DNA from: a phage
Assembly: GCA_024672315.1 (NCBI GenBank)
Contig: GCA_024672315.1_4714.1
Length of the DNA: 64,000 bases
Direction: 5' to 3' (one strand)
Positions 366 to 55,544 of this stretch are shown here, in pieces (position 1 is the stretch's first letter; the number at the start of each line of letters is the position of its first letter). A program made the translations under genes and the position numbers. The notes under the pieces are model-generated. The model did no database searches. It saw nothing but the letters and a program-made list of their open reading frames with translations, and was not told the DNA's origin.

Positions 366-411
366 GCATAGAACCCTCTCCCAACCCGTCAGGGAAGGGA
401 GAGGGAATATG
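366..411. promoter_or_regulatory. conserved GC-rich intergenic stem-loop, family copy 1
   Basis: gcatagaa CCCTCTCCC aacccgtcagggaa GGGAGAGGG aatatg; 9-bp perfect stem; between two minus-strand genes; no U-tract on either strand. Confidence 0.8.
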
Positions 412-427
412 TCAGTTTATTAACTGA

Positions 428-1750
428 TTACTGCTGTGCTGCGTCAGCCGGTTTCTCAGCCGCTTGGCCGCCGTACTCTTTCAGCATTTTAGCAACGCCA
501 TCCAGGACAGCGTTACCTGCCTGAACACCGTATTTCATCAGACCAGTCTGCGGGTTCACGTAGCAGGAACGTGCGTCTTTCAGTGCAGACAGTACAGCTT
601 GAACACGCTGTTTTTCCTGAGCGGAAACTTCGCCTTTCTTAGACAGATCGGCTTCCATATCGTCACCGAATTTAACAGCGTCTTTGAAGCCCTGGGATTT
701 CTTACCGATGTTGCCTTTCAGCGCCAGCAGTTTGTCAGCCAGTACTTCAACACCGCTAACCGCACCAGCCAGCTGGTTCAGGGACAGGACGGTAGCTTCA
801 ACTTCTTTTGCTTCGCCGGAGCGTTCCCAGGTTACTTTACCATCATTGGCTTTGAAACCCCAACCTGCCGGGCCAGCAACGTCAGCAATCGCCGGAGCGT
901 TCAGTTTATCAGTGTATTCGGTGTGGGACTTAGATTTGACTAACTCAACGAATTTATCAGCACGATCGTCAGCAGCCTTCATTGCTTTCTCGAAGGTGTC
1001 AGCGATTTTGGTCGCGCCGGTAACCAGATCGTCGCCACCGATGTAGCCAGAAACGCCGCTACCCAGTTTAACTTTGGTATTTTTAGCAGCGCCTTTACGC
1101 TTGGCGATCATTTCTTTCAGTTTAGCAGCACGTGCTTTCAGTTTGGTTGCGCCGTCGAAGATACGATCCATGAACTTCACGAAGGTTTCCCAGGAAGTTT
1201 TCAGGAAGTTCTTGATGGTTGCCCACAGTTTCTGCCACCATTTTTGTTCTTCCAGGAAGATCATGTTGGTTGCATCGTAACGGGAAGCGGAACCACCGAA
1301 GCTTTCGAAGGACGGCATGGTTTCCGGCATTTTGAAACCGATAGTACCACACAGACGTTTCAGATTACGCATGTGTTCCTGAGCGGTTTGTGCAGACATA
1401 CCACCGTCTTTCAGGTAGCTTTCGGTTGCAACAACGGTTTCCGTCAGTTCATCCATGGCTTCGTCCATGGCTTCTGCGGTTTCGTCGTCTTTTGCAATTT
1501 CGATAACAACAGCATCAACCTGCTCGATATCACCACGAACTTCGATAGCCAGTTCGGTTTCAGCTGCGGTATCTTCAGCGATTTCAGCACGTTCGGTCAG
1601 TTCAGCTACAGCGTTTTCATCCGCTGCTGCAGCATCAGCTGCCGGTTCTGCTTCAACGGTTGCCGCTGCATCCGGATCGATCTCAGCAGCCAGTTGAACC
1701 AGCTGTGCGTTAGATGGATTTGCGACAAGACGATCAAAAATAGAAGGCAT
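428..1750 (-). CDS. hypothetical protein, strongly acidic Ala/Glu/Asp-rich (possible virion-internal or scaffold-like protein)
   Basis: 440-aa ORF; ATG with AAGGAA RBS; acidic low-complexity N-terminal half and Lys-rich helical-looking C-terminal half; plus-strand ORFs 464..1771 are antisense shadows. Confidence 0.8.
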   Translation of the reverse strand: MPSIFDRLVANPSNAQLVQLAAEIDPDAAATVEAEPAADAAAADENAVAELTERAEIAEDTAAETELAIEVRGDIEQVDAVVIEIAKDDETAEAMDEAMDELTETVVATESYLKDGGMSAQTAQEHMRNLKRLCGTIGFKMPETMPSFESFGGSASRYDATNMIFLEEQKWWQKLWATIKNFLKTSWETFVKFMDRIFDGATKLKARAAKLKEMIAKRKGAAKNTKVKLGSGVSGYIGGDDLVTGATKIADTFEKAMKAADDRADKFVELVKSKSHTEYTDKLNAPAIADVAGPAGWGFKANDGKVTWERSGEAKEVEATVLSLNQLAGAVSGVEVLADKLLALKGNIGKKSQGFKDAVKFGDDMEADLSKKGEVSAQEKQRVQAVLSALKDARSCYVNPQTGLMKYGVQAGNAVLDGVAKMLKEYGGQAAEKPADAAQQ

Positions 1751-1814
1751 AATTTGTTTCCTTTACAATAAATTACACATTAGCTAATGTGGCTTAAGTG
1801 AACCGTCAGCTCAC

Positions 1815-2345
1815 TTAAAAGCCCTTAAAACCCGGTGCCATAGGTTGCCCAAACACCGCATTCAAAGTACATATGATGTCCTGGATGCCATTGTCCCAAT
1901 GGAGCCAAGTACGCACCATCTCTTCGTCTGACAACGTGATATAACTCATAAGTTTACCGCTGCTTTCCAGACGTTGGTGTGAACTTAGCGACTGGCGATC
2001 TGACCAGTTATCAATCAATTGACCAGCAATCTGAACGTTCGTGTCTCGTCTACCCGTGTGAATGAACCGCAGCATGTCACGGATAAACTCCAGACTGGTG
2101 AAGTTCAGATTTGGGTTATGGCTGTTCATTTCCACCCAATCGGTGATGGGGTACATCAAACGATAAAGGGTAGAAAGAACCTGACGCTCATATTTCCAGT
2201 CATCGAGAGGAGTACCATCGACCAGACGCTGATACAAACTAACAACGTCCCGATCGTAGTTCTCCTGGCGTTTTACACCGTTAACCGGGAATCCGAAGAA
2301 CCCGGTACCGTATAGCGTTAAAGGGACGTCACGAAGTGCACTCAT
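1815..2345 (-). CDS. hypothetical protein
   Basis: 176-aa ORF; its ATG overlaps the stop of the upstream gene (ATGA at 2342-2345). Confidence 0.75.
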   Translation of the reverse strand: MSALRDVPLTLYGTGFFGFPVNGVKRQENYDRDVVSLYQRLVDGTPLDDWKYERQVLSTLYRLMYPITDWVEMNSHNPNLNFTSLEFIRDMLRFIHTGRRDTNVQIAGQLIDNWSDRQSLSSHQRLESSGKLMSYITLSDEEMVRTWLHWDNGIQDIICTLNAVFGQPMAPGFKGF

Positions 2346-3244
2346 ACAGCCGCCTCTTCTTTTCGTTTAATATCGTAACGAAGTTTCTTCAGTCGCTCTT
2401 CGTGATATTCGATCTGCTGCTGGATTTTTGGATCGTTGCCCGCATTCTGTTGCTTTTGCTTCAGCGACAAAATCCAATACTCCAACGCTTGGGCTTCTTC
2501 TTTGGCCGCTTGTAACGACGCTTCTTCACGTTCACTGCGCCAGATGCGATAACGATAAATAAGCGTGTTGGTCATTTGAGTGTCGGACCATGAGCCCATA
2601 CGCATCGGGTCAGTATTACCCGCGTTGTATAAGCCATTACCAACACCGTCTTCATCAGAAACCACAACATCCGGGATTTTATCCAACCCAGCAAGAATCT
2701 GTTGTTTCTGTCCACACAGCACCTCGGTGGCGATGGCGAAACCGTACATGTTGGCGGTCAGGTAAGCAATCTCGTTTTTGGTGAAGAACTCACCAAGTGC
2801 TTTATCACCACCCGGCATGCTTTCGCAGATGACCGTTGCACGAAGTAGCGTACGAGCGTAGCTAACGTAGAAGCCCAGGGATTCAACAAGACGTACCAGA
2901 GCGGCTTCTTTGAAACTTAGGCCGTCAGCAGCAACATCGATTTCCAGGTTTTTGTTAACACGTTTAACAATTTCTGGAATCAGGTCAACAGCATTGCGTA
3001 GCGCTAAGTGAACGTTTTCTACCCAGCTTCCAGAGCGAACGCGGGTTAAACGCTGGTGCAGATCCTTATCAGCAAGTTTCCATAAGGCGCTTTCTCCCTT
3101 TTGGAGAAGCGAAGCGGATGTCTCGTAGTAAGGAATCGCGGTGTTGTTGATTTCGTCACGGATTGATTCGAGTGCGTCAGCAACACCGGTGCGTTTAAAA
3201 AGCGGCTTCAAACCGCGAATGAATTCTTTAAAATCGATTGCCAT
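2342..3244 (-). CDS. hypothetical protein
   Basis: 300-aa ORF with AGGTG RBS-like sequence upstream of ATG. Confidence 0.8.
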   Translation of the reverse strand: MAIDFKEFIRGLKPLFKRTGVADALESIRDEINNTAIPYYETSASLLQKGESALWKLADKDLHQRLTRVRSGSWVENVHLALRNAVDLIPEIVKRVNKNLEIDVAADGLSFKEAALVRLVESLGFYVSYARTLLRATVICESMPGGDKALGEFFTKNEIAYLTANMYGFAIATEVLCGQKQQILAGLDKIPDVVVSDEDGVGNGLYNAGNTDPMRMGSWSDTQMTNTLIYRYRIWRSEREEASLQAAKEEAQALEYWILSLKQKQQNAGNDPKIQQQIEYHEERLKKLRYDIKRKEEAAV

Positions 3245-3283
3245 GAGTGAGCACCTATGCTATTTCGAAACAGGTTGCATGTA

Positions 3284-4390
3284 TTAACGAATCTGTGGGA
3301 CGTTTCCGGTACGGAGCGCCTGGAGGATCGTCAGAAGATCGGAACCCGAGGTTGACGAACTGTTGGATTTTTCCAGTTGCTTGAAGCTTACGGTGGTCCC
3401 TTGATCCAAGCTGTGGAAATAGAAGGTCACCATCTCTTCAGCTTCGTCGATGATGATCAACTGCATTGCGAGGGCTTCAGCCATGACTTTCTGACGTGTG
3501 GTATAGTCAGATAAACGACGTCCGATCTTACGCTCGATGGCTTCCTGGTTAGCCTTAGAGATGATATAGGTGGAGGCAATGGCTCCAGAAGAAGGGATCT
3601 TTGTGCTCGCTGCAGCTTTTGCGGCATTGATGCGCGCAGCATTAACAGCCTTACGGATACCCTCTTTATCCATGCGTGAGATTCGTTTGTGTTCACGAAC
3701 CAGATCGCTAAGCAGGATCATATCGCTCCAGAAAGACAGCTCACCTGCCATCATGCGATGCCAACGTGCTCGCCAGGTGTTCTGTGGGCCGCCAATCGCT
3801 AAAATCGACGCAAGCACTTCCGCTGGAGAGCTTGCGATACGCATGCTGATATTCAGCGGCATTTTCATCGTTGCTTGACCATCGGTCAGCGTCACGGTTA
3901 AGAACTTGCCGGTGACCGCGTTCGCATCTTTGTTCAGCAATTCGATCGCTGCGTCGCTGGCTCCAACATCGATGCTATTTTTTTGTTTCCCCTGCAGGTT
4001 GAATCCTTTGTCATCAAGGAAAACAAGGCTTTTGCTATCCGCACTTTCCAGCGCTAATTTAACAGCCTTATCCGTCAGGTTAGCGTTACGGTTTGGATTC
4101 ACACGACCCAGCGTTTTATCGACACTGATATTACCCACCTGCATGATGGTATTCAACGCCAGTAAATAGAACCCGGTATACATGTTTTCAGCGGTGCGCA
4201 TGCAGTTGCCTAACGCATTGCGTGCGTCGCTATAATACAACTCACGTTCGAAGATCAACGGCGCGATAACGCGTGAAGGTTGTGAGAGTTCAACCAGCGA
4301 ACCTGGCTGGATAAGTTTATTAACTTCGTAGACTTTAGCGATACCGGACGCAACAACGTTAACAGCGTCGGCAATTTCTGATGCTACCAT
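3284..4390 (-). CDS. hypothetical protein
   Basis: 368-aa ORF, first gene of a minus-strand block; divergent from the plus-strand gene starting at 4425. Confidence 0.8.
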   Translation of the reverse strand: MVASEIADAVNVVASGIAKVYEVNKLIQPGSLVELSQPSRVIAPLIFERELYYSDARNALGNCMRTAENMYTGFYLLALNTIMQVGNISVDKTLGRVNPNRNANLTDKAVKLALESADSKSLVFLDDKGFNLQGKQKNSIDVGASDAAIELLNKDANAVTGKFLTVTLTDGQATMKMPLNISMRIASSPAEVLASILAIGGPQNTWRARWHRMMAGELSFWSDMILLSDLVREHKRISRMDKEGIRKAVNAARINAAKAAASTKIPSSGAIASTYIISKANQEAIERKIGRRLSDYTTRQKVMAEALAMQLIIIDEAEEMVTFYFHSLDQGTTVSFKQLEKSNSSSTSGSDLLTILQALRTGNVPQIR

Positions 4391-4424
4391 ATTGAAATCC
4401 TTATTTACAAATAAAGGAAAGAAA

Positions 4425-5630
4425 ATGTCTAATTACTACGACCAAGCTATTCAAACCATTCAGGAGAATAATGCGTCGTTAACACCCGAAGCTGTGGAGG
4501 CAGCGGGCAATGCGGTGTTATTCACTGATTCGGATTGGGCAATAGCGCGGAAGAATATTCGTACCAGTGTCGGTCAAGGGACATACGAGGACAGTATCGC
4601 CAGACGGTATCGGAATGTGTCACCTATTCCGGGTAACAGTCCGATTCCGATTAACCGCGATCATGCCGGTATTACCTTCTTCACACGACCTAATTTACAT
4701 CTTACCGACGCGAACTTAAAACGAGATCGACGTTTGTGGTCGTTACGTACGGATAATCCTAACAGTATTCAGGCTGTTGTCCGTGACTACTTGGACCCTG
4801 TGGGTGCCAGAAAGCGGAACCATCGAGGACGTGCCATCGTCGATGAGCGCAATCCATTCATAAGTATACTGACGGACAACCTAACGGATATCAGCGGTTT
4901 CAATGACATGGAAATGCAGGTTTACCAGGGTAAACCGGGATTACGTCAAGAAACCGTTGTGATGGCTGACGGTTCGGTGGATATGTTTCAACCCTATAAC
5001 CTGAACGCGACATTCAAGAACATCATGGGTAACCCTATCATGTTCCTTCATTATATTTGGTTGATTTACATCGCAGGCGTGCATAATGGTGAACTGACGC
5101 CAAGCCCTCAGGCCATCATCGACAATGAAATGGATTATTGGACAAGATGTTATCGCATCATCCTGGATCCAACTGGGATGTATGTTCGTTATATCTTCGC
5201 ACCGACCGCGATGTTTCCCGTCGGGTTACCGATCGGTAATATGGCTAACTACAGCATCGATAAACCCTTCACGCAGGATAACGAACGTATCACTATCCCA
5301 TACCAAGCGGTTGGTAACAACGCATTCGATGAAATTCTGAAGGATGAATTCAATCGCCTTGTCCTGATGTTCTATTACGGTGAGAACGATACCCGTACGT
5401 TCCTTGAAGATGAGGAGTTGGTACCTATCTCACCCTACGAGCGTCGAATCATGTCGTATCGTGTCGATATGTATCCATTTATTCATCCGTTGACCTCAGA
5501 GCTTCTTTGGTTCGTACCCGCTGATGATTACAACGAATTCTATCTGGATCTTGAACCATCGGCGTTACCACCGGATACGTTCAGTCGCGATCTTGTCCGA
5601 ACCACCATTCCGCAAAATTACGAGGGATAA
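4425..5630 (+). CDS. hypothetical protein
   Basis: ORF track starts at TTG 4392; I prefer the first ATG (residue 12, MSNYYDQAIQ...) which has an AAGGAAAG RBS; only ~34 bp separates it from the divergent gene 3284..4390. Confidence 0.75.
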   Translation: MSNYYDQAIQTIQENNASLTPEAVEAAGNAVLFTDSDWAIARKNIRTSVGQGTYEDSIARRYRNVSPIPGNSPIPINRDHAGITFFTRPNLHLTDANLKRDRRLWSLRTDNPNSIQAVVRDYLDPVGARKRNHRGRAIVDERNPFISILTDNLTDISGFNDMEMQVYQGKPGLRQETVVMADGSVDMFQPYNLNATFKNIMGNPIMFLHYIWLIYIAGVHNGELTPSPQAIIDNEMDYWTRCYRIILDPTGMYVRYIFAPTAMFPVGLPIGNMANYSIDKPFTQDNERITIPYQAVGNNAFDEILKDEFNRLVLMFYYGENDTRTFLEDEELVPISPYERRIMSYRVDMYPFIHPLTSELLWFVPADDYNEFYLDLEPSALPPDTFSRDLVRTTIPQNYEG

Positions 5631-5633
5631 TAA

Positions 5634-8627
5634 ATGAGCGTAACCAACAAAGATCTTGCTGAACAGCTCAATCGCTATATGCTTTCACCTATTGAAATGC
5701 AGGCTGTTGCAAGCGATATGATCCGTTTGGCCTCTGATGGCGAGTTAACCCTGGTTGACCCCAGCTGTCCGTTTGTTTATCTGCTGGAGGTTGCAACGGC
5801 AACGGCTGCGAACCAGAACGCACGAGATGAGTCCCGTGTTCGCGAACTGTATCCGAAGCTTGCAACCAACTGGAGCCAGCTCTATCGTTGGATGTATGAT
5901 GAGTCGTACGTCGGACGTTTCGCAATGCCAGGTAAAACGGAAATCATTTATTCGTTAGGGTATCAGGAAATCCTCGATCGCGCTGTAGAAATTCCAAACA
6001 CCGCCACCTCCGATGATTTAAGCCGTTCTTACAGCCGTAAGTTAGTGATACCGCGTACGACGGCGTTTACGGTGGCCGGAATGGATTTCGGGTTGCATTA
6101 TCCCATCGAAATCCAGGTGCAAGCGCACGACCAGATCCGTGTCGTTTATAACACTGATAACATCAGCCCGCTGCAAACCTTGGAGAGTAACCAAGTTGAG
6201 TACGGGGTTGTTCGTGTAAAAGCGGGTAAAGTGTTGGTGATGCGTATCCCGCTGTTCCAGTTTAAAACGCTGGTAAAAGATGTGCCGTTTAACAGCGTTC
6301 ACGGGATGAACAGCAGCATTACCTTCGAAGATCAGTTTTACCATTGTCGTGCGTATATGTCGTCGGATAATGATACCTGGACGGAGATAGCGACAACACA
6401 CAGTCAGCAGATCTACGATCCGTTAACACCAACCATCGCGTTACAAGTGGAAGGGAACAAACTGAACTGGCGTGTTCCTGAAATTTATTTGTCTCAAGGC
6501 ACGATGGATAAAAGCACCATTCGGCTTGAGGTGTTGACGACGAAAGGGAAAATCAGTGTCGACCCGTCTGATTACGACGTGACCGATTGGAAAGATAACT
6601 ACATCGATTTGTCGCCAAAAGCCGAACAGAAATACAGTGCGCCGCTAAGCGCGTTCAACATTAAAGGGATTTATAGCGAAGGGGCATTGTCGGGTGGACG
6701 ATCTGCGTTAACGTTCGAGGAACAACGTGAACGCGTTATGGCAGGCGTGAACAAAACCAAGGTGCCAATCACAGGAACGCAGGTAGAGCTGGTACTTCAA
6801 GATGCGGGTTACGGGATGGTGACCACTATCGACAACGTAACCAATCGTTCGTTCCTGGCAACCCGAGATTTACCGCAATTGAGCGACAGCGTGCCGCAAG
6901 CCGGTTCGTTGATGGGGTCTTTCTATACGTCAGCCGCAGCATTGGTGAAAAGTAAGTTTGTCGCTGATAACGGTGATCGTATTACGATTAAACCGGATTG
7001 CTTGTATCGTGACAGTAACGGAAGCATCGCGCTGTTGTCAGACGATGAAATTGACCGTATTAATGCAGGCAACTCCGATGCGAAGTTGAACGCGGTAAAC
7101 AACGCCATGTTGTTTTACAGTCCGTTTCATTACGTATTAGACGCAACAAGCGATTTCGACATCCATGCTTATTACCTGGATGCCCCTAAGATCGGCACAC
7201 AAGCATTCCTCGACGCGAACGAGACAATCCCGTTAACCGCTATGGTGACCGGATACCGTCTGGATCGTATCGCTGAAGGATATCGTCTAAGCCTCATTGT
7301 AGAAGGTAACGACGCATGGAAGGCGCTCGACGATAAAAACGTGCATATCCAGCTGGGGTTCAATCCGCGGGGTGAGGGTGATTATGCGACGATGTTAGCA
7401 TCACCGACAACCGATGAACAAGGTCGTCGTTTGTTCACCTTCGATATCACCACGAATTATGATTTTACGCGAATCCTGGCCGATGATTCCACGGCGTATG
7501 AACCATATATCGCATTGACTTCGTTCTCGATGTATGAATCAACACCGCGGGATTATTGGGCATCGCTGCAGCAGTATTTGGAAATCTTCCATGTGGTGAC
7601 GGATTACGCACCGGAAGATGTCGACGGTATTTTACACAGTGCTTCCGATAATTACCTGGTTAAGAAACTCACGCTTCAAAATGGGTATTGTTTCTACCGT
7701 GAACGTCTCACCGCAACCTTTGGTTATGATCTGGACGGTCTTTGGATGCGCTCTCGTACGGTGGCCTCGGAGATTACGTATAAACGTTATACCGAGAACA
7801 TCCCGTGGGTGTATGATGAAGATATTCCAGCGACGGATGAGACCGGTTCGGTTATCATCGAGCAAGGTGATGATGGTACGTTGTCGGTTAAATATCTACA
7901 TCGTAAAGGTGACCCGAAATTAAACAGTGATGGAAGCCAAGCCTATCGTTATCTGAAAGGCGACATCATGAAAGATAATTACGGTAATCCGATCCCTGTC
8001 GATGAACGTGAAGTTCTGCGTAACCTGGACATGTTCTTTATTGATGCGTCGTATCTGCTAGCGAACGATACGGACGTGATTGACTATCGTAACACGATTC
8101 CTACTCAGCTTATTGAGTGGATTCAGAACGATATCAGCACGTTCAGGAATTTCTGTTATGAGGAAACAGAGATTTCACTGTATCCTAAGCAATCGCTGGG
8201 GTATGTGGATGTGATTGTGGAAAACGGATTGGAAACAACGCTTCCTGCTGCCTTATCGTTCAACGTGACGCTTTACTTACCAGCTAAGCAATACGCGGAT
8301 TTGGATCTACGTCAAGTCCTTCAAGCGATGGTATCGAAAGTCATCAACGAATGCTTAACGTCCCGTACGGTGGCTAAAGCAGAAATGATCGCGATGATTC
8401 GTGATGAGGGTGGTGATGACATCCTGAACGTTGAAATCGATGATTTTGGACCAGGTAAGAACCTCAGTGTTTATACCGCGAAGAACGATGGTGTTCGTTG
8501 TGCGGTGAAGAAAGAGCTTTATGTTAAAGCGGATGGTATCTTGTCCGTACGTGAAGCGATCGATGTAAGTTTTGTGAAACATGCACAAAGCAACAGTTCA
8601 GCGCTAGCGCAAGGCCTTCGTGTCTAA
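5634..8627 (+). CDS. hypothetical large protein (997 aa), probably structural
   Basis: Long ORF starting 4 nt after the previous stop with GAGGGA RBS; no catalytic motif recognised. Confidence 0.85.
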   Translation: MSVTNKDLAEQLNRYMLSPIEMQAVASDMIRLASDGELTLVDPSCPFVYLLEVATATAANQNARDESRVRELYPKLATNWSQLYRWMYDESYVGRFAMPGKTEIIYSLGYQEILDRAVEIPNTATSDDLSRSYSRKLVIPRTTAFTVAGMDFGLHYPIEIQVQAHDQIRVVYNTDNISPLQTLESNQVEYGVVRVKAGKVLVMRIPLFQFKTLVKDVPFNSVHGMNSSITFEDQFYHCRAYMSSDNDTWTEIATTHSQQIYDPLTPTIALQVEGNKLNWRVPEIYLSQGTMDKSTIRLEVLTTKGKISVDPSDYDVTDWKDNYIDLSPKAEQKYSAPLSAFNIKGIYSEGALSGGRSALTFEEQRERVMAGVNKTKVPITGTQVELVLQDAGYGMVTTIDNVTNRSFLATRDLPQLSDSVPQAGSLMGSFYTSAAALVKSKFVADNGDRITIKPDCLYRDSNGSIALLSDDEIDRINAGNSDAKLNAVNNAMLFYSPFHYVLDATSDFDIHAYYLDAPKIGTQAFLDANETIPLTAMVTGYRLDRIAEGYRLSLIVEGNDAWKALDDKNVHIQLGFNPRGEGDYATMLASPTTDEQGRRLFTFDITTNYDFTRILADDSTAYEPYIALTSFSMYESTPRDYWASLQQYLEIFHVVTDYAPEDVDGILHSASDNYLVKKLTLQNGYCFYRERLTATFGYDLDGLWMRSRTVASEITYKRYTENIPWVYDEDIPATDETGSVIIEQGDDGTLSVKYLHRKGDPKLNSDGSQAYRYLKGDIMKDNYGNPIPVDEREVLRNLDMFFIDASYLLANDTDVIDYRNTIPTQLIEWIQNDISTFRNFCYEETEISLYPKQSLGYVDVIVENGLETTLPAALSFNVTLYLPAKQYADLDLRQVLQAMVSKVINECLTSRTVAKAEMIAMIRDEGGDDILNVEIDDFGPGKNLSVYTAKNDGVRCAVKKELYVKADGILSVREAIDVSFVKHAQSNSSALAQGLRV

Positions 8628-8642
8628 AACAAAATAGCATGA

Positions 8643-8687
8643 GCATAACCCTCCTCCAACCCAACAGGGAAGGAGGAGGGAATATGC
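8643..8687. promoter_or_regulatory. conserved GC-rich intergenic stem-loop, family copy 2
   Basis: gcataa CCCTCCTCC aacccaacagggaa GGAGGAGGG aatatgc; between convergent genes 5634..8627 (+) and 8690..11476 (-). Confidence 0.8.
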
Positions 8688-8689
8688 TG

Positions 8690-11476
8690 TTATCTTACGT
8701 TATTGCTATTCTGCTGTTCGCTGAACCAACCGTACACCTTGAGATCGGTACCGTATTTCAATGCGATATACGCATTCAATGCAGCACAGAACAAAGACAC
8801 GAATGCCCATATCAGCGAAGGATCAACATCTTCCGTTACCACCGGGAGAGTATTATCCGGTTCCCACGATGGAGAACTGTCCATGAACGTCGTGTACCAT
8901 TCCCGCCGTTGTTCTTCAGTGGTAAAGTCGCTATGAGGTTCCAACGCTTCTTTTGCCAGACGTCGATATTCGAACACATACGTTGCGAAAGCCGATGAGT
9001 TACCAGATTCGCCTTCATAGTTCGGATCCACCGCACAACAGAGTTCTGTGGAATCTAACAAAGCAATCGCTTGTGTGATGCTGTCGGCAGTGCCTGCACC
9101 ATAGAGCTCGATAGACCGCGAAAGCTTTTCACAGAACGTATTTAACGCGGCAGGATTGGACACCTGAAGGTCAAGGCCTAATGTCCACGGATAGTTACTG
9201 AACACGCCCGTAAACCGCGGCAGGACACCCAACAGATGTTGTCCGATTACAGCACGGTTATAAACAGCCCGGTTATAGACTTGAAACGCAGCCTCCAAGG
9301 CTTGGTTATAATGACGACGAAGTTCGTCACGCGAGTTGCGGAATCTGTTTGCCGCAAGACTCGTGGCTGCGACGCTACAAACATCGTAATTGGTGGACGA
9401 GAGCACAGTTTCGTTAAGATCGAACGATTCCTGTTTCAACGATCCGCTAACCGCTGCTGCTTCGCTGTTTGCTTTATCGACAACTGTACTCAAAGCGTTG
9501 ATGTAACGCTTAGCCCGGACTTCCAGCCATTGTGCGATACCGAGAACATCCACAGCGGCTTTAGCAAGGTCACGTGCGTTCACGATTTCGTTCTTCAATG
9601 CCCCTAAACCTTTATTCTCAGGCGAAGAGGCTTGTTGACGAATCATGCTGTTCAACATGGTAAGCAGATTATCCAACTCATGTCCACTGACCTTGTTACG
9701 TGCATCGGTAACTGGTCCTTGCAGGAATTTACGACAACCATCGTTGTATCGAATCAGTTTGTCCACATCGATAGATTCGTTCGTGGATTCCTTGAACTGA
9801 TCCTTCAATTCTTCACGGTAGTCATGGATTTCACTTGCGAGATTATCGATAGTGATACCATCGTGTCCAAGAAGAACTTTATTGAAGTTACCTTTCTCGA
9901 ATGCAAGAGCAAGACCTTCACGAATCTTAGCGAGTTTATCCTGATCGAGTTCGCGACCGTTCGATAGCTCTTTCACTTCCGAGCTGATTAGTGCCGCAAC
10001 GTTACCCAGATTGTCGGTAACGCCTTTGAATGTTCCCGACCAGATCGTTCCTGCTTCAGCATATTTCGCAATGGTCTGAATACCGACGGTGTGCAGCGAC
10101 GCTAAACGTTTCTTCGTGCCTTCGGTAAGCAGAGCGTCTTTAGCTCGCGTAAGCTGGCTGTTATTCGCTTCCGCCTGCTGAATCGCCGCTTTCGCACTTC
10201 CATTACGCCAGCTCTTAACCAGCCAATCGACCAAACGTTTTAGGATGTTGACGGTGTATTCCATCGTCCGCCGTAACGTTTCCCACGCGCTTTCTGCGGT
10301 ATAGATGCCGTACCCTTCCTGCACGAGATCGGTACGTGTGTATCCGTCGGCCGCTTCGATTTCTTCTTGCGTTTTATCCCAAAGCTCTTCGCTACGAACA
10401 GCAGTAGCGGTTTCAGATACCGACATAACAAGCTCAGCAACAGCTTCAGCGTAAGTCAGTACGGTACGCACACATTGCACTAACATGCGCTGGTAAACGA
10501 TACGTGCGTTTTGCAGACGTGCGATAACCGCTAAATAACCGATGTTATCAAGATTTTCATCGGTTTGAGCAGATTCAACGCGTTCTAACAGTTGTTTAAC
10601 TAGCGCCGCTGTTTCTGGGTAATCGTTCACGACGTCACGCATGATTCGTGATGCGAAAACCGCAGTACCTAAAACGGTGAGAAGTGTTTTACCGTCCCAT
10701 TCTTTCGGTGCCGCTACCGATTCAGCAGGGATGAGATTTCCCGCTTGGTCGAAGTACGGCATAAGGACATTGATATCAGTCGACGGAACAGCAGTAATTG
10801 CGTTGTACTCTTCATCCACGCCATCGTTGCCAGACGGTTGTAATGCGAGCGCTTGTTCGAGGATTTTGCGGTCAACAGCGTAAAGCGCCGACAGAGCCTG
10901 TGTTACCGCAACCAGATCAACGATCGGCGACCAGAGCTGTGCGAGCTTACCTTCGTATTTCTGTACAGCGATAGCAAGGTCTTCTTTTACGTCTGGATGA
11001 TCGATCAAACCACCCAATGTTTCATGGATGGCAGAAAAACGTTCAGAATGCGCTTGAGTCAATGCGGTAAAATCGTCAACGTACGACGCATTTTCTTCAA
11101 GACGCGTAAGTTCCTGCTCCAGAAGATCTTTTACTTGCGTGGCGGATGCGTTTCTCAACTGTTCCCCGATAATCGCGATGGCTTTATCGACAACACGGCA
11201 GGCTTCATTGAAACCGGTCGTTGAAGGTAACTCGGTCCATAATGCCAGCGGCTTACCTTCCATTGCGTCAGGAAGGGAATATGACAGCATTGCTAGTTGT
11301 TGACGTGATACCTGTTTGTCACGATGTAATGTTTCTTTCAACGCCAGAAGCTCATCAAGACCCACGCTGCTAGGGATCGTGGGATGTGATACGGCGTTGA
11401 TATTTCCTGTCAATGACTCAAGAACCAATAAACCATTTTCAGCGGAAGATAACCCTGCTTTAAGGTATTTGTTCAT
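8690..11476 (-). CDS. hypothetical large alpha-helical protein (928 aa)
   Basis: Long ORF, helical/coiled-coil-like composition; convergent with 5634..8627; GGAG RBS sits directly 3' of a perfect 12-bp hairpin. Confidence 0.85.
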   Translation of the reverse strand: MNKYLKAGLSSAENGLLVLESLTGNINAVSHPTIPSSVGLDELLALKETLHRDKQVSRQQLAMLSYSLPDAMEGKPLALWTELPSTTGFNEACRVVDKAIAIIGEQLRNASATQVKDLLEQELTRLEENASYVDDFTALTQAHSERFSAIHETLGGLIDHPDVKEDLAIAVQKYEGKLAQLWSPIVDLVAVTQALSALYAVDRKILEQALALQPSGNDGVDEEYNAITAVPSTDINVLMPYFDQAGNLIPAESVAAPKEWDGKTLLTVLGTAVFASRIMRDVVNDYPETAALVKQLLERVESAQTDENLDNIGYLAVIARLQNARIVYQRMLVQCVRTVLTYAEAVAELVMSVSETATAVRSEELWDKTQEEIEAADGYTRTDLVQEGYGIYTAESAWETLRRTMEYTVNILKRLVDWLVKSWRNGSAKAAIQQAEANNSQLTRAKDALLTEGTKKRLASLHTVGIQTIAKYAEAGTIWSGTFKGVTDNLGNVAALISSEVKELSNGRELDQDKLAKIREGLALAFEKGNFNKVLLGHDGITIDNLASEIHDYREELKDQFKESTNESIDVDKLIRYNDGCRKFLQGPVTDARNKVSGHELDNLLTMLNSMIRQQASSPENKGLGALKNEIVNARDLAKAAVDVLGIAQWLEVRAKRYINALSTVVDKANSEAAAVSGSLKQESFDLNETVLSSTNYDVCSVAATSLAANRFRNSRDELRRHYNQALEAAFQVYNRAVYNRAVIGQHLLGVLPRFTGVFSNYPWTLGLDLQVSNPAALNTFCEKLSRSIELYGAGTADSITQAIALLDSTELCCAVDPNYEGESGNSSAFATYVFEYRRLAKEALEPHSDFTTEEQRREWYTTFMDSSPSWEPDNTLPVVTEDVDPSLIWAFVSLFCAALNAYIALKYGTDLKVYGWFSEQQNSNNVR

Positions 11477-11491
11477 AAAACACTCCGTTGA

Positions 11492-11522: not shown

Positions 11523-11557
11523 GTTGAACAACGCGTACGGTTATACGGTACGCACGA

Positions 11558-14787: not shown

Positions 14788-14819
14788 GTTAAATTCCTTT
14801 ATAGTAAAAATAGAAGAGA

Positions 14820-19131: not shown

Positions 19132-19134
19132 CAG

Positions 19135-19865: not shown

Positions 19866-19910
19866 ATCAAGTATGTTGATCCTCGTTTAACAAAAAGAAA
19901 ACGCATGCGA

Positions 19911-19957
19911 AGCCCCTCCCCCTGGCGGAAGCCGGAGGGAGGGGTGAGGTTTATGCG
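19911..19957. promoter_or_regulatory. GC-rich intergenic stem-loop (related family)
   Basis: CCCCTCCC cctggcggaagccgga GGGAGGGG tgaggtttatgcg; 8-bp outer stem with inner GGC/GCC stem and GGAA loop; between the ORF-poor region and minus gene 19951..20436. Confidence 0.7.
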
Positions 19958-20436
19958 CGTTCGTTGCCAACCGTTACTTTGTAGTCAGCGTCGGTTAAGA
20001 AAATAGACAGGAATCCATGTTCTTTGCAAATCTGACTAAGGATGTCAGCAATGATTTCGTTGATCATCGGTTTGTTTGCAAGGGCATAGATGTACCCGGG
20101 TGTAAAAGAAAGTGCATGATTGATCATAGGCTCATGAGAAGCCAAGATAAGGATCACGTGATGCTTCCCATCGTCGGTAACGACCGCTTGCGTAGACACG
20201 AAGAAATCAGTGAAGCAGCAGCGATCACAGGCTTTAGGTATATACAAATCACCCAGAGCTTCGTCGCGTGCTTTTATGTGTGTTTCAGGGGTGATGCTGC
20301 TAAGTTGATCTTCAGCGAGATCCAAGACATCCTCAATCGTTTTAAGAATAGCGTTGCGGAAATCCTCGCGGTAGAATGGGATGATATCACGATCGTTCAT
20401 GTAATCGCCGGATTCGATAGTAAAGTTGATGTTCAT
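19951..20436 (-). CDS. hypothetical protein
   Basis: 161-aa acidic ORF with AGGAG RBS; preferred over the overlapping plus-strand ORF 20017..20439 by strand context and RBS. Confidence 0.7.
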   Translation of the reverse strand: MNINFTIESGDYMNDRDIIPFYREDFRNAILKTIEDVLDLAEDQLSSITPETHIKARDEALGDLYIPKACDRCCFTDFFVSTQAVVTDDGKHHVILILASHEPMINHALSFTPGYIYALANKPMINEIIADILSQICKEHGFLSIFLTDADYKVTVGNERA

Positions 20437-20999: not shown

Positions 21000-21027
21000 T
21001 GTTTCTTTTCCTGTGTAGTCGGTATAC

Positions 21028-21067
21028 AGCCCTTCCCCGGCCTTGATGGCTAGGGAAGGGGCTATGC
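21028..21067. promoter_or_regulatory. GC-rich intergenic stem-loop (related family)
   Basis: AGCCCTTCCCC ggccttgatggcta GGGAAGGGGCT atgc; imperfect ~11-bp stem; between minus genes 20547..20999 and 21075..21473. Confidence 0.65.
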
Positions 21068-21074
21068 TACGTTG

Positions 21075-25500: not shown

Positions 25501-25530
25501 ATAAACTGCGTTAACACGAAATAAAAACAG

Positions 25531-25589
25531 CATAGAAACCTCCTCCCCCATCCTTCAAGAGGACGGTGGGAAGAGGGAGAGATTAAATG
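25531..25589. promoter_or_regulatory. GC-rich intergenic stem-loop (related family, imperfect)
   Basis: catagaaa CCTCCTCCCCCATCC ttcaaga GGACGGTGGGAAGAGGGAGAG attaaatg; same catagaa(a) left flank as copy 1; downstream of 25583..25984. Confidence 0.55.
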
Positions 25590-25984: not shown

Positions 25985-26030
25985 GGAGTGCTTTTCCTAT
26001 TTTTATTTTCTGCACAGGATAAATTCAACG

Positions 26031-26076
26031 GCATAAAGCCCTTCCCTGCCCTTATATGGGGCGGGAAGAGTTTATG
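26031..26076. promoter_or_regulatory. GC-rich intergenic stem-loop (related family)
   Basis: gcataaag CCCTTCCCTGCCC ttatat GGGGCGGGAAGAG tttatg; stem with two bulges; TATG-like flank on both strands. Confidence 0.65.
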
Positions 26077-32222: not shown

Positions 32223-32232
32223 TGTAAAGGTA

Positions 32233-32277
32233 ACATAGCCCTCTCCCTTCCCTTACGGGTTGGGAGAGGGCTTATGC
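32233..32277. promoter_or_regulatory. conserved GC-rich intergenic stem-loop, family copy 3 (inverted orientation)
   Basis: acatag CCCTCTCCC ttcccttacgggtt GGGAGAGGG cttatgc; near-identical to the reverse complement of copy 1; between convergent macro-domain gene and 32288..32662. Confidence 0.8.
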
Positions 32278-32287
32278 TGTTATGTTA

Positions 32288-36539: not shown

Positions 36540-36671
36540 GGTCTTGTCCTATACGTTGGTGGTTGAGGTGACGGATATCGGATGCGTGCTGGACGTGAAC
36601 CCTATAGTTCACGCTATCGCCATTTTCTACCTCGTTTCTATTCTCAAAAAGGAAATTTCATACGATGACGC

Positions 36672-36712
36672 CATAGCAGCTCCTCCTTCCCTGACGGGTT
36701 GGAGGAGCATAC
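36672..36712. promoter_or_regulatory. conserved GC-rich intergenic stem-loop, family copy 4
   Basis: catagca GCTCCTCC ttccctgacgggtt GGAGGAGC atac; loop identical to the reverse complement of copy 1's loop; between lipoprotein gene and 35898..36539. Confidence 0.8.
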
Positions 36713-36716
36713 TTAA

Positions 36717-41591: not shown

Positions 41592-41697
41592 AAGCGCAAC
41601 CCTCCTCCAACAGTCAAATTAAATTGTAAAACTCCTCGAGATCAGAGTGCGATTCGAGGTAAACGTAAACAGTCCAGACGACCGCATAAAATTCCGC

Positions 41698-41755
41698 GCA
41701 TATTGCCCCTCTATCTCGCTTTGTCGAGATAGAGGGGAGGATAATACGATTATGC
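41698..41755. promoter_or_regulatory. GC-rich intergenic stem-loop (related family)
   Basis: gcatattg CCCCTCTATCTCG ctttgt CGAGATAGAGGGG aggataatacgattatgc; perfect 13-bp stem; a second perfect hairpin (ATGGGGCGG taa CCGCCCCAT, ~41774..41794) sits directly after the stop of 41798..45394. Confidence 0.8.
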
Positions 41756-46351: not shown

Positions 46352-46372
46352 GTGTACCGTTATATCGAACGA

Positions 46373-48602: not shown

Positions 48603-48649
48603 GATGATTTCCTTCTTTATTAGGATGATTACATTTAGTCAGTTTAACA

Positions 48650-48686
48650 GCATAAACCCTTCCTGCGTAATGCAGGAAGGGCATAC
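48650..48686. promoter_or_regulatory. GC-rich intergenic stem-loop (related family)
   Basis: gcataaa CCCTTCCTGC gtaat GCAGGAAGGG catac; perfect 10-bp stem; on the coding (minus) strand it is followed by TTTATGC, ~45 nt, AAGGAA RBS and the ATG of 48345..48602. Confidence 0.8.
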
Positions 48687-48695
48687 GGATTTGTT

Positions 48696-51905: not shown

Positions 51906-52010
51906 CTTGACATCCTTTTATATCGGATTGATTGCTAATAATTCAAGGTGAAGCTGATTACTGCATTGCTTCACCTAAGTAATATAGCCGTGAAAATTAA
52001 TGTATTAACC
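51903..52010 (-). promoter_or_regulatory. conserved upstream regulatory block, copy B (5' region of 51588..51905)
   Basis: Coding-strand ..TTTCACGGCTATATTACTTA..(spacer)..GCAATCAATCCGATATAAAAGGATGTCAAG-ATG; identical to copy A over ~33 nt at the start codon and ~20 nt in the distal block. Confidence 0.7.
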
Positions 52011-54102: not shown

Positions 54103-54146
54103 TTAAAGCCCTCTTTATCTTTTTCCATTTCTCTTTACATAACCAC

Positions 54147-54851
54147 TTAAGACGTTGCCATCTTACCTTCCAGAGACTTCTTCGGTAAACCATGGATAAC
54201 TCCTTCCGGGGTTAAGAACACACAGTCTGGATTCTGCGTTCGTGAACGGTCGTCTGGACTGTTCAACGAAAACAGCAATGCAGAAATACCTTTTGTCCGA
54301 TTTAACGTTGCGACGATCACATCAAGCTGCCGTAGCGCATCCGATACTGTTCGATGTGGAACGATTCGCGACTGTTTGAAGCTGGCTAACCGCCAAGTCT
54401 CGAACAAACAACGCAGTTTAAACACGTCGGACGGAATAGCTGTAGATCCCTGTTCGATAACCTCAACCCGATCCGCTTCAGGATAACCTACAGCAACCGC
54501 ACTAAAGTGTTTTACCCCATTATGAAAATCATCGATAGACGCTTCAGCGTATTTACATACCGTGCCAGAAACGACCATCACTTTTGCTAAACCGCGATAA
54601 TTGATCGTTAACGGAATACGAAATACGCGTAAAGCATGTTCCGGATTTAATGAGACGTCATTCACTTTCGCAGATACCAGCGCACCTCGTTCATATCGAG
54701 CTTTGAACGGCAGCCCATTATAAACGGGATTGATCACAACGCCCCCTGGGGAGGCGTTAGCGTTAAGATGGGTGTTAAGCCAATCGGATACTTCCTGTCT
54801 GCTGGTTACGATTAACATAAAACGGTCCTCCATTTCTTTTCCTTCATTCAT
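54147..54851 (-). CDS. hypothetical protein
   Basis: ORF track starts at 54872; ATG at residue 8 has GGAAGA RBS and overlaps the methyltransferase stop by ~8 nt. Confidence 0.65.
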   Translation of the reverse strand: MNEGKEMEDRFMLIVTSRQEVSDWLNTHLNANASPGGVVINPVYNGLPFKARYERGALVSAKVNDVSLNPEHALRVFRIPLTINYRGLAKVMVVSGTVCKYAEASIDDFHNGVKHFSAVAVGYPEADRVEVIEQGSTAIPSDVFKLRCLFETWRLASFKQSRIVPHRTVSDALRQLDVIVATLNRTKGISALLFSLNSPDDRSRTQNPDCVFLTPEGVIHGLPKKSLEGKMATS

Positions 54852-55494
54852 GGCGCATATCTTCCAAATCATCCTTTTGTTTTGTAAATTCTGATTGCTT
54901 GCGATAAACCTCCCATGAGTCGTATATACCGTAAAAGTTCAAATGGCGTGCATTTAAGTTCACAGTAAATTCTTCCACAGAGGCAAAATCCGAACGAAGC
55001 ATCGAATGGAAGGTGTCATCTCCAGTGCAGCCTCCGTATCCTTCACCCTGATAGACCAAAAGCTGGTGAGGTTGGATACGTGCGGCAACCAATGCAGCTT
55101 GTGGTTCGTCGTAAGGTGGCCATGACAGTAGAATAACGTCGTACTGTGAAAGATCGATGTTTGTGTAGTCGGCTTGCTGAATGTCCTCGATAAACGGGTG
55201 GGGATGTAATTCCGTATCGTAAGCGGTAATATCCTCAACACCGAGTTTACGTAACACGTAAGTCAGGTAACCTGTCCCACAACCCAGGTCAGCGACGCGT
55301 CGCCCGTAACAGATGCTCGCTAACTGGAGCGCGGTATCCATGGTTAACAATGACCACCCGATGCGCTGGGTATATTCTTCACGCACGATCCATTGTTGAT
55401 GGTGCGTCATTGGTTCTAAGATAGCAGCAAGCTGCTGGTACGGCAACGGCATTTTGGTTTCGCCTTGCGTGACTAATGCAATAACGTCGTTCAT
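54844..55494 (-). CDS. class I SAM-dependent methyltransferase (substrate unknown)
   Basis: 216 aa; motif I VADLGCGTGYLTYVL; a downstream ..LLSWPPYDEP.. resembles but does not exactly match the (D/N/S)PPY motif of amino-methyltransferases. Confidence 0.7.
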   Translation of the reverse strand: MNDVIALVTQGETKMPLPYQQLAAILEPMTHHQQWIVREEYTQRIGWSLLTMDTALQLASICYGRRVADLGCGTGYLTYVLRKLGVEDITAYDTELHPHPFIEDIQQADYTNIDLSQYDVILLSWPPYDEPQAALVAARIQPHQLLVYQGEGYGGCTGDDTFHSMLRSDFASVEEFTVNLNARHLNFYGIYDSWEVYRKQSEFTKQKDDLEDMRHE

Positions 55495-55512
55495 TTTGTT
55501 TCCTTTTTATCG

Positions 55513-55544
55513 GCATAAGCCCTCCCATGCCGGGAGGGTACAAT
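55513..55544. promoter_or_regulatory. GC-rich intergenic stem-loop (related family)
   Basis: gcataag CCCTCCC atgcc GGGAGGG tacaat; on the coding strand followed by TTATGCC, A-rich leader with AAGGAAAC RBS and the methyltransferase ATG. Confidence 0.75.

Follow-up and report, generated by a model that had tools for sequence, protein, structure and literature searches.

A family of GC-rich intergenic hairpins in the 64,000-nt stretch of phage DNA analyzed here (the window) is probably the Goslar-lineage version of a conserved transcription terminator of the phiKZ type, a reading to which we give a probability of roughly 80% and in which termination is inferred from the homology of the signals. 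It is a known kind of signal, here built with a two-tier hairpin specific to the lineage, and the TATG downstream of the hairpin acts like a component of the stop signal and not demonstrably as a promoter. The window is collinear with, and ~94% identical to, vB_EcoM_Goslar, which identifies it as DNA of a Goslar-like nucleus-forming E. coli jumbo phage.

A preliminary description of the window had listed 11 such hairpins, all of which we recovered at the given positions, together with a degenerate twelfth member at 63559-63577 that was absent from the first list (Table 1). At all 11 sites and at 63559, a GC-rich stem joins a pyrimidine-rich 5' arm (CCYCCCC-like) to a purine-rich 3' arm (GGGRRGG-like). 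Folding on the transcribed strand is stable (dG -24 to -34 kcal/mol, z -3.3 to -7.6), the exception being the short element at 55513 (-14.6 kcal/mol, z -1.8). Loops span 5-20 nt, and the main subfamily carries a 14-nt insert composed of an internal loop, a 3-bp stem, and a tetraloop; the four copies said to share a 14-nt loop (366, 8643, 32233, and 36672) indeed do so (AACCCGTCAGGGAA, AACCCAACAGGGAA, TTCCCTTACGGGTT, and TTCCCTGACGGGTT), each with an inner CCC/GGG mini-stem and a tetraloop. An unbiased scan of the window for hairpins having an arm rich in either pyrimidines or purines returned 16, 12 of them intergenic. Counting 32233 as well, which narrowly failed the purity filter, the 7.5% of the window that is noncoding holds 13 of the 17 pyrimidine-arm hairpins (p = 4e-12), while first-order Markov controls gave 0-5 such hairpins per window. 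Across the whole Goslar genome, 43 of 55 hairpins with such arms fall inside the 9.6% of noncoding DNA (p = 2e-33). Equal frequency in coding DNA, which the preliminary description had named as evidence against its reading, is thus not what we observed: the hairpins are strongly intergenic. Several of them carry the label putative terminator in the Goslar GenBank record. No Rfam family matched anywhere in the window at the gathering threshold, and a consensus terminator scan of positions 1-20000 flagged no family member.

Table 1. Members of the hairpin family in the window, with predicted type. Sites carry the start positions of the first list, the last one that of its hairpin; a dot marks convergent junctions; TATG positions run 5' to 3' on the strand given.
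Site	Interval	Strand	Predicted type	Hairpin	Neighboring genes	Tail and TATG	Next ATG	Related genomes
366	360..412	-	class-I terminator, co-directional	two-tier, 374-405: CCCTCTCCC/UU/CCC-UGAC-GGG/UU/GGGAGAGGG; dG -27.8 kcal/mol, z -5.0	22 nt past stop of 428-1750	TTC-TATG-CCG; 370-367 (-)	~42 nt after G	kept in 4 genomes; loop flipped in contig B
8643	8640..8692	.	bidirectional terminator, convergent junction	8649-8680; z -6.6 and -7.6	5634-8627 (+); 8690-11476 (-)	8683-8686 (+); 8647-8644 (-)		variation confined to tetraloop
19911	19908..19960	.	terminator, convergent junction	19913-19944 (CCCCTCCCCC...GGAGGGAGGGG); z -3.3	19951-20436 (-) ends 6 nt from hairpin; short ORF (+) ends 19865	19952-19955 (+ only)		100% identity in Goslar
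21028	21022..21068	-		21030-21060; z -4.8	14 nt past stop of 21075-21503	sense-strand tail CUGUAUAC, without TATG; 21063-21066 (+)		Goslar counterpart TATATG
25531	25525..25582	-	class-I terminator	25539-25576; z -3.3	6 nt past stop of 25583-25984	UUUC-TATG-CUGUUUUU; 25534-25531 (-)	165 nt to next gene start, early-promoter-like motif between	missing in contigs B and C
26031	26026..26076	-	class-I terminator	26039-26070; z -4.6		CUU-TATG-CCGUUG; 26035-26032 (-)	~48 nt after G	contig C: changes that improve pairing
32233	32228..32282	.	bidirectional terminator, convergent junction	two-tier, 32237-32272; z -7.1 both strands	31644-32222 (+); 32288-32662 (-)	32273-32276 (+); 32237-32234 (-)		2 compensated stem pairs, inner loop flipped; labeled "putative transcriptional terminator" in Goslar record
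36672	36666..36714	-	class-I terminator	two-tier, 36679-36708; z -4.8	8 nt past stop of 36717-37223	UGC-TATG-GCG; 36675-36672 (-)		
41698	41693..41743	-	class-I terminator	13 bp, 41706-41737; z -5.3		CAA-TATG-CGCGG; 41702-41699 (-)		loop is exact reverse complement of Goslar's; arm mismatches of Goslar ortholog form G-U pairs on sense strand only
48650	48645..48688	-	class-I terminator	48657-48681; z -7.0	14 nt past stop of 48696-49193	UU-TATG-CUGUUA; 48654-48651 (-)	49 nt after G	
55513	55508..55545	-	short class-I terminator	55520-55538, CCCUCCC-GGCAU-GGGAGGG, form most like phiKZ; z -1.8, weakest of set		CU-TATG-CCGAUA; 55517-55514 (-)	20 nt after G	
63559	63550..63583	-	additional degenerate member	63559-63577 (CCCCGUC-UUAAU-GACGGGG); z -4.3	6 nt past a stop	GATACG (TACG)		Goslar ATATGC (TATG)

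The hairpins sit close behind stop codons, at a median distance of 14 nt (25 nt or less in 30 of 39 cases, and about 6-22 nt at most sites in the window), and their spacing to the following start codon varies widely. Past the stem, the Goslar genome shows a tail with the consensus (T)TATG-C-Y-G-T-T, in which the gap between stem and TATG is 1-4 nt in 35 of 46 cases and TAT continues with G in 43 of 59 tails (73%, versus a background of 16.5%); the same TTTATGCYGT tail is also found on stems of unrelated sequence. At co-directional sites of the Goslar census, a TATG stands behind the hairpin in 17 of 26 cases on the sense strand and in 5 of 26 on the antisense strand, and at convergent sites it does so on 19 of 30 sides, against a background of 2.4%. 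The convergent window junctions at 8643 and 32233 have TATG on both strands, and that at 19911 on one strand only. The robust flank pattern is one-sided, with TATG within 8 nt downstream on the gene-ending strand at 10 of the 11 sites; the exception is 21028, where the sense-strand tail reads GTATAC. The earlier statement that nine of the eleven hairpins have CATAG/CATAA on one side and (T)TATG(C) on the other was an over-count: the two flanks occur together within 10 nt at no more than four to five sites (366, 8643, 26031, 32233, and, marginally, 41698), and the right-hand AAATG of 25531 shares bases with the upstream gene's stop codon and does not count as a flank motif. At 21 of 26 co-directional sites the sense-strand RNA is the more stable one (Wilcoxon p = 0.003), owing to G-U pairs. 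It also holds that most copies have no U-tract, with 2-5 T within the first 8 nt past the stem and 5 only at 25531 and 48650, so that it is not evident how a classical U-tract mechanism could operate. Placement, strand logic, and sense-RNA stability together argue for a phage-type, largely U-tract-less terminator that would be bidirectional where genes converge.

Signals of this kind have been mapped in related phages. ONT-cappable-seq of phiKZ located 133 termination sites, 61 of which carry the motif 5'-BCCYCCCCHWWDGGGRRGGBYTTATKYYGT-3' (Putzeys et al. 2024, PMC10914365). In phage 201phi2-1, motif A (n = 59) resembles the phiKZ motif, 15 termination sites are bidirectional, and all eight terminators tested showed activity in a terminator trap in vivo (PMC11512511). 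The elements in the window match the phiKZ motif at the sequence level, both in their GC-rich stem, whose 5' arm is rich in pyrimidines and whose 3' arm is rich in purines, and in the (T)TATG-Y-Y-G-T tail 1-4 nt past it, and they share its intergenic position just past stop codons. When the same census was run on 100 kb of phiKZ, the mapped terminators were recovered, with GCATA...TATG on both sides at convergent junctions, as in the GCATA/TATGC flanks seen here. The stems of 201phi2-1 motifs A and A/B are extended by a second flanking motif, which by its description is comparable to the CAUA/UAUG stem extension here. There are also differences: the present host is E. coli and the genus Goslarvirus, stems measure 9-13 bp and not 7 bp as in phiKZ, the G after TAT is far more fixed than the phiKZ K (G or T), and an experimental 3'-end map exists for phiKZ, the Goslar lineage being compared by sequence. 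The 4-nt loop (HWWD) of phiKZ is not found, and the dominant subfamily instead has a 2x2 internal loop (A.A or U.U) below a CCC/GGG stem and tetraloop. This 14-nt loop, set against the simple tetraloop of phiKZ, speaks against the terminator reading, as do the low T count of the tails, the missing sense-side TATG at 21028, and its one-sided occurrence at convergent 19911. The two-tier form does retain a tetraloop at its apex, and the 14-nt insert is a lineage-specific hairpin variation. Bacterial intrinsic (Rho-independent) terminators likewise place a stable GC-rich hairpin soon past the stop codon, in which a palindrome serves both strands at convergent ends; in contrast to them, the tails here contain no unbroken stretch of five or more U, their T residues being interrupted by A and G/C, the level expected of a U-tract (5 U or more within 8 nt) is reached at two sites only, and arms and tail are conserved in sequence and not just in structure.

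On the terminator reading, a phage RNA polymerase would read beyond the stop codon, the nascent RNA would fold into the very stable hairpin, pyrimidine-rich arm first and purine-rich arm second, and the transcript would end in the short, moderately U-rich tail (U)UAUGCYGU starting 1-4 nt past the stem. With a stem that is almost perfectly palindromic, either strand of the DNA yields a pyrimidine-arm-first hairpin, and a tail on both sides (GCATA...TATGC) would give a bidirectional terminator at convergent gene ends. By analogy with the relatives, RNA 3' ends probably form at these hairpins, and the responding polymerase may be the nvRNAP and/or the vRNAP.

The preliminary description had proposed a phage-specific terminator/promoter or RNA-processing unit. 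In a combined terminator/promoter, the hairpin would stop the upstream transcript and the adjoining TATG, as a late promoter of the nvRNAP, would restart transcription with its G at +1, so that each unit would insulate as well as restart. Late promoters of the phiKZ nvRNAP do read 5'-TATG-3' with G at +1, and this TATG lies on the non-template strand, where it is read by a pocket of GP123 (PMC4666361, PMC12809450). Goslar encodes homologs of GP123 (tblastn E = 4e-53; gene outside the window) and of the polymerase subunit GP55, and the RNAP-like gene at 26850-28151 in the window matches neither. Seven of the 14 TATG-contact residues of GP123 are identical in Goslar, including F151, which stacks on G+1, and two more are conservative aromatic swaps; compared with 29% overall identity, this conservation of the pocket is only suggestive (p = 0.08). 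The order hairpin, TATG, leader, RBS, and ATG on the coding strand was confirmed at seven of the eight co-directional window sites, with 20-165 nt between TATG and the next start codon. Moreover, selected 201phi2-1 terminators are >99% efficient, so that downstream genes would need start sites of their own. However, TATG is equally frequent at convergent junctions (19/30 sides versus 17/26), where it could only give antisense RNA, and, unlike in phiKZ late promoters, which are unconserved downstream of TATG, it is locked to the hairpin at a fixed spacing and continues into a conserved CYGTT extension that is a feature of the terminator motif. Nor is TATG enriched in the 20 divergent, promoter-containing intergenic regions of Goslar (11/40 sides versus ~29% expected), and no hairpin lies upstream of the model promoter P119L. 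The terminator half of the proposed unit is therefore well supported, by the match to the phiKZ and 201phi2-1 motifs and the post-stop position, whereas the convergent TATG, the fixed spacing, the divergent regions, and P119L leave the promoter half unsupported. A dual stop-and-restart role is compatible with the terminator reading, and we hold it as a tentative option with the odds somewhat against it.

Alternatively, polymerases might read through, and the hairpin might block 3'-5' exonucleases or mark a cleavage site, thereby setting mRNA ends. Very stable hairpins at gene 3' ends with a preference for the sense strand would suit such a role, as would the tails without U-tract, and in the ONT data on phiKZ and 201phi2-1 termination and stalling of 3' exonucleases at a stable hairpin are not fully separable by 3'-end sequencing alone. 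Yet the eight 201phi2-1 terminators, drawn from across motif classes, reduced reporter expression in the terminator trap, which amounts to a read-through assay, and a pure stabilizer would have no need of a sequence-specific tail at fixed spacing, present on both strands at convergent junctions. Stems of 9 bp + 3 bp are, in addition, too short for typical RNase III substrates, which counts against processing. We consider this explanation unlikely.

Comparison between genomes supports a conserved RNA structure. The two-tier form is present in 35 near-identical 32-nt copies (18 distinct) in four genomes, with 12 of 12 positions perfectly paired; C-G to T-A switches are seen at three positions, and there are only three stem variants. 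Orthologs display compensated changes as well as loop inversions with the structure kept, and in four elements the loops are exact reverse complements between close genomes while the stems are unchanged. Such "flip-flop" inversions of hairpin loops between short inverted repeats are well known in chloroplast noncoding DNA; here they occur in putative phage terminators, and loop inversion is a by-product of palindromic stems and not a function. A selfish or neutral palindromic repeat family (REP/MITE-like), spread via recombination or gene conversion and without a role in transcription, could likewise produce many near-identical copies with few stem variants, inverted loops, the presence/absence polymorphism at 25531, an exact match between the window copy at 32233 and a Goslar copy at 49776 that is not its ortholog, and an exact form confined to Goslar-like genomes. 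Placement regardless of gene ends and transcription direction is, however, contradicted by the short stop-codon distance, by a tail whose orientation tracks transcription, and by the G-U asymmetry in favor of sense RNA; moreover, arms of the same composition and the same tail recur in phiKZ, a very distant phage in which 3' ends were mapped at them, and the same tail sits on unrelated stems. This origin therefore appears very improbable. Still more remote is a cruciform in the DNA itself that would serve as a signal in replication, recombination, or packaging. Palindromes that are perfect and, at some sites, symmetrically flanked would fit it, and the loop inversions show that the arms contact each other as DNA at least from time to time, but a cruciform is strand-symmetric, whereas mismatches are systematically G-U-pairable only in sense-strand RNA and the tail is strand-specific at co-directional sites, and the tight coupling to stop codons would be left unexplained.

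The window also contains hairpins of other classes, namely two true T-tract terminators (24898-24915 and 46321-46353), which form a separate class, and a compensated hairpin at 11492.

Escherichia phage vB_EcoM_Goslar (Chimalliviridae, 237 kb) shares 94% identity with a 12-kb stretch of the window, and its 63.3-127.7 kb segment is collinear with the entire window. Since the sequence is identical neither to Goslar nor to two Goslar-like metagenomic genomes of IMG/VR (contigs B and C), we regard the window as a fourth member of the Goslar-like lineage, with a coding fraction of ~92.5% and the minus strand predominating. All eleven intergenic hairpins of the preliminary description (named here by their first position: 366, 8643, 19911, 21028, 25531, 26031, 32233, 36672, 41698, 48650 and 55513) were found as described. 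Folding of the transcribed strand gave one dominant hairpin per site of -24 to -34 kcal/mol (55513 excepted), and comparison with dinucleotide-shuffled sequences put the z-scores between -3.3 and -7.6; the short hairpin at 55513 is the only weak one (z -1.8). A motif-free scan for hairpins with an arm of ≥85% pyrimidine or purine (Y/R-arm hairpins) returned 16 hits in the window, including 12 in intergenic DNA, and picked up one extra, degenerate family member. When 32233, which narrowly failed the purity filter, is added, 13 of 17 hairpins fall within the 7.5% of the DNA that is non-coding (p = 4e-12); Markov-chain controls yielded 0-5 hairpins per window in the same scan. The 14-nt “loops” said to be shared by four copies are also real, and are themselves structured: a 2x2 internal loop (A.A or U.U) is followed by a CCC/GGG stem and a tetraloop, which together with the outer Y/R stem make up a two-tier form.

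Less of the proposed flanking symmetry survived, as CATA(A/G) and TATG both lie within 10 nt of the hairpin at just 4-5 sites, so that the earlier figure of nine was an over-count. A one-sided rule describes the sites better: at 10 of 11, TATG occurs ≤8 nt past the hairpin on a strand whose gene ends there. Read 5' to 3' on the transcribed strand, the order is stop codon, hairpin, 0-4 nt, TATG (mostly TATGCYG) and the next start codon, with a gap of 6-22 nt between stop codon and hairpin at most window sites (the exceptions being 60, 98 and 127 nt) and of 20-165 nt between TATG and the next start codon. The GCATA...TATGC symmetry arises because TATG is present on both strands at two sites between convergent genes (see the table).

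The same scan applied to the complete Goslar genome detected 55 Y/R-arm hairpins, 43 of which are located in the 9.6% of non-coding DNA (p = 2e-33). Alignment of the Goslar tails, i.e., the bases just 3' of the hairpin, on TATG showed that the next bases are C (18/30), Y (27/30) and G (20/30), followed by T and T, and unrelated stems such as GAGCCTGTCC-TTCG-GGGCAGGCTC carry an identical TTTATGCYGT tail; the tail is the invariant part of the element. TATG starts 1-4 nt past the stem in 35 of 46 instances, and the base after TAT is G in 43 of 59 tails, compared with 16.5% genome-wide. Hairpins follow the stop codon at a median distance of 14 nt (≤25 nt in 30/39), while the distance to the next start codon ranges from a few to hundreds of nucleotides. 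Of 26 co-directional junctions, 17 have a post-hairpin TATG on the sense strand and 5 have one on the antisense strand; convergent junctions carry it on 19 of 30 sides, and the background is 2.4%. TATG thus tracks incoming transcription and not the presence of a downstream gene. At 21 of 26 co-directional sites, the RNA of the sense strand folds more stably than its antisense counterpart, with a difference of up to 11 kcal/mol (Wilcoxon p = 0.003), because the stem imperfections are of the T/G type and permit G-U pairing on one strand only, and at convergent sites the two strands are roughly equal in stability. Given this strand asymmetry of G-U pairs, we reject the reading of the elements as DNA cruciforms.

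The stem shows covariation. Using a search pattern for the two-tier form that did not impose complementarity, we retrieved 35 copies (18 distinct) from the four genomes, with perfect pairing at 12 of 12 positions; both C-G and T-A pairs occur at stem positions 3, 6 and 7, with zero mismatches, and the internal loop is invariably AA/AA or TT/TT. Comparison of orthologs revealed two compensated pairs each at 32233 and 11492 (an additional hairpin, described below), other substitutions being mostly confined to the apical loops. At 366, the sense-side TATG is retained in all four genomes, and the antisense-side TATG is missing in contig B.

Signals of this kind have been mapped experimentally in Pseudomonas phages. 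ONT-cappable-seq of phiKZ identified 133 termination sites, 61 of which share the motif 5'-BCCYCCCCHWWDGGGRRGGBYTTATKYYGT-3', a stem-loop followed by a TTAT region, and six terminators between convergent genes are bidirectional (PMC10914365). The main terminator motif of 201phi2-1 (n=59) is similar, 15 termination sites of this phage are bidirectional, and eight of its terminators were functional in vivo in a terminator trap assay (PMC11512511). The window elements agree with the phiKZ motif in arm composition and tail, the tail consensus being TATGCYGTT in Goslar versus TTATKYYGT in phiKZ. As a positive control, our scan of 100 kb of phiKZ returned hairpins of the published type (e.g., GCCTCCC-TTCG-GGGAGGC followed by tttatgttgtt), and the convergent phiKZ junctions gp23/24.1, gp51/52, gp125/126 and gp129/130 carry GCATA...TATG on both sides. 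Given this homology to mapped terminators and the internal evidence from the window and Goslar, the best explanation for the elements is a phage-type terminator whose hairpin and tail would form one composite signal, predicted to be bidirectional between convergent genes.

The preliminary description had envisaged a combined terminator/promoter unit, of which the terminator half is well supported by the phiKZ and 201phi2-1 motif match and the promoter half is not. The TATG late promoter that it named for phiKZ is real: the late promoters read by the non-virion RNA polymerase (nvRNAP) consist of 5'-TATG-3' with G as +1, the tetramer being necessary, yet not sufficient, for transcription (PMC4666361), and in a 2026 structure the β-like subunit GP123 binds the four non-template bases (PMC12809450). 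The idea that the tail TATG doubles as an nvRNAP promoter at co-directional junctions is attractive because the tail contains this exact tetramer and Goslar encodes clear homologs of the nvRNAP subunits GP123 (E = 4e-53) and GP55 (E = 4e-61). In the GP123 homolog, 7 of 14 TATG-contacting residues are identical, including F151, with two further conservative aromatic swaps at an overall identity of 29% (p = 0.08), a degree of conservation that is suggestive only. Such a dual role would also make sense if termination is efficient, as it is for selected 201phi2-1 terminators (>99%; PMC11512511). However, TATG is equally frequent at convergent junctions, its spacing to the stem is fixed, and the CYGTT extension is conserved, in contrast to the bases downstream of TATG in phiKZ late promoters (PMC4666361). 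In addition, the divergent, promoter-containing intergenic regions of Goslar (n=20) carry TATG on 11 of 40 sides versus ~29% expected, which is no enrichment, and a four-base motif carries too little information for this test. Finally, the model late promoter P119L has no hairpin upstream, which rules out the hairpin as an obligatory promoter part. All tests at hand argue that TATG is there for termination, and we put the dual role at somewhat below even odds.

How a terminator might work with TATG in place of a U-tract invites a speculation that we consider rather unlikely, namely that the GP123 pocket also binds TATG on the non-template strand while the enzyme is elongating and makes it pause shortly after the hairpin. 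The pause would fall 5-7 nt beyond the hairpin, and at co-directional junctions the enzyme would be left poised on a start site, creating a stop-and-restart insulator. Multisubunit RNA polymerases share a general pause signature, Y(-1)G(+1), which the T-then-G step in the tail fits. If true, Chimalliviridae would use a single protein-DNA contact twice, in the TATG promoter, which is short and seems insufficient, and in the terminator that lacks a U-tract, and this contact would be conserved between Pseudomonas and E. coli phages.

The terminator assignment extends an experimentally defined Pseudomonas-phage signal to an E. coli chimallivirus lineage. Several copies already carry the label “putative transcriptional terminator” in the Goslar GenBank record, and our contribution is modest: the cross-genus conservation of the tail, and the overlap of terminator and promoter tetramer as a testable question. 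We found no statement in the accessible literature on the presence of the nvRNAP promoter tetramer in the terminator tail; a ChmC eCLIP paper on Goslar and PhiPA3 contains no motif or 3'-end information, and a transposon-mutagenesis preprint has no content on terminator sequences. Among 2.9 million IMG/VR contigs, only three, all Goslar-like, contain the two-tier 32-mer in its exact form, and no family reached its gathering threshold in an Rfam scan of the window, suggesting that this hairpin form is lineage-specific within an already known class. Arm composition and the TATGYYGT tail are both conserved among very distant genera, which argues for recognition by a shared phage transcription machinery and not for generic hairpin-plus-U-tract physics. 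The elements provide putative transcription-unit boundaries for Goslar-like genomes and candidate compact bidirectional terminators for E. coli.

Coordinates and details of the features discussed in the text
Feature	Position	Strand	Detail
Hairpin between convergent genes	8643		TATG past hairpin on both strands
Hairpin between convergent genes	32233		TATG past hairpin on both strands
Hairpin at convergent junction	19911		convergent if short plus-strand ORF ending 19865 is counted; TATG on plus strand only
Degenerate family member	63559-63577
Loop inversion (366)	374-405		TTCCCTTACGGGTT in contig B (flipped); AACCCGT(C/G)AGGGAA in window, Goslar, contig C
Loop inversion (11492)	11492-11522	-	CCAATAA in window; TTATTGG in contig B
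Loop inversion (32233)	32237-32272		inner loop flipped in window
Loop inversion (41698)	41706-41737		CTTTGT in window; ACAAAG in Goslar
Element of variable presence	25531-25589		in window and Goslar
Putative early promoter	25483-25493	-	CTATATTAC(C/T)T
Putative early promoter	51977-51987	-	CTATATTAC(C/T)T
T-tract hairpin	24898-24915	-	GGUGGGGUUCGCCCCACC-UCUUUUUUU
T-tract hairpin	46321-46353	-	ACGGUGUUCAUCC...-UUUUCCUAUUUUUCGUUUUUUUUU
Group I intron match (RF00028)	19067-19585	+	43.7 bits vs gathering score 50; E = 2.6e-9
ORFs with the intron match	16352-17851, 17941-19131, 19650-19865
RNAP-like gene	26850-28151	-

Individual elements differ between close relatives. Four loops are exact reverse complements between the window, Goslar and contigs B and C on otherwise identical stems, and these flips are small inversions that arise through the palindromic arms. 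Gene conversion among copies is hinted at by the 32233 copy of the window, which is identical to the Goslar copy at 49776 although the two are not orthologous. Contigs B and C have unrelated sequence in place of the terminator-like element at 25531, indicating that single elements are gained or lost between close relatives. In Goslar, the annotated start codon of Goslar_00047 (L002:49770-49807) is the ATG within a post-hairpin TATG, 4 nt past the stem, so that either this small ORF is mis-called or the arrangement is leaderless. Another Goslar hairpin, at 15778, precedes 854 nt in which no gene is annotated (L002:14972-15825).

Hairpins of other kinds were also observed. The intergenic 12-bp hairpin at 11492, CCTAGGTGGAGG...CCTCCACCTAGG, has its two substitutions relative to Goslar (CCTAGGGGAAGG...CCTTCCCCTAGG) fully compensated; as it lacks a TATG tail and the start codon of gene 8690-11476 follows 15 nt downstream, it probably has another function, e.g., in the 5'-UTR or in control of terminator read-through. 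Two T-tract hairpins represent a second terminator class with a real T-tract, no pyrimidine-first arm and no TATG, and may be dedicated to another polymerase or expression class. Two intergenic copies of CTATATTAC(C/T)T are each followed by their own hairpin and a near-identical leader, GCAATCAATCC(A/G)ATATAAAAGGATGTCAAG, right before the start codon, and the same motif (TAAGTAATATAGCCGTGAAA on the opposite strand) is present in four divergent intergenic regions of Goslar. These copies are probably early promoters, given their likeness to TATATTAC, which we take to be the consensus core of the phiKZ early promoter read by the other phage RNA polymerase (vRNAP).

A full-length, sub-threshold group I intron match lies directly 3' of an HNH/NUMOD1 endonuclease ORF and downstream of a gene with a DNA-polymerase-exonuclease domain. 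In the Goslar record the corresponding 819-nt stretch is unannotated, introns being annotated only elsewhere, and the locus is probably an intron-interrupted gene with an unannotated group I intron. The Goslar ortholog of gene 26850-28151 is annotated as weakly similar to an RNAP β subunit; BLASTP found no similarity of the window gene product to GP123 or GP55, whose homologs are encoded elsewhere in the genome, so that it is perhaps part of the virion RNAP set or has diverged too far for detection.
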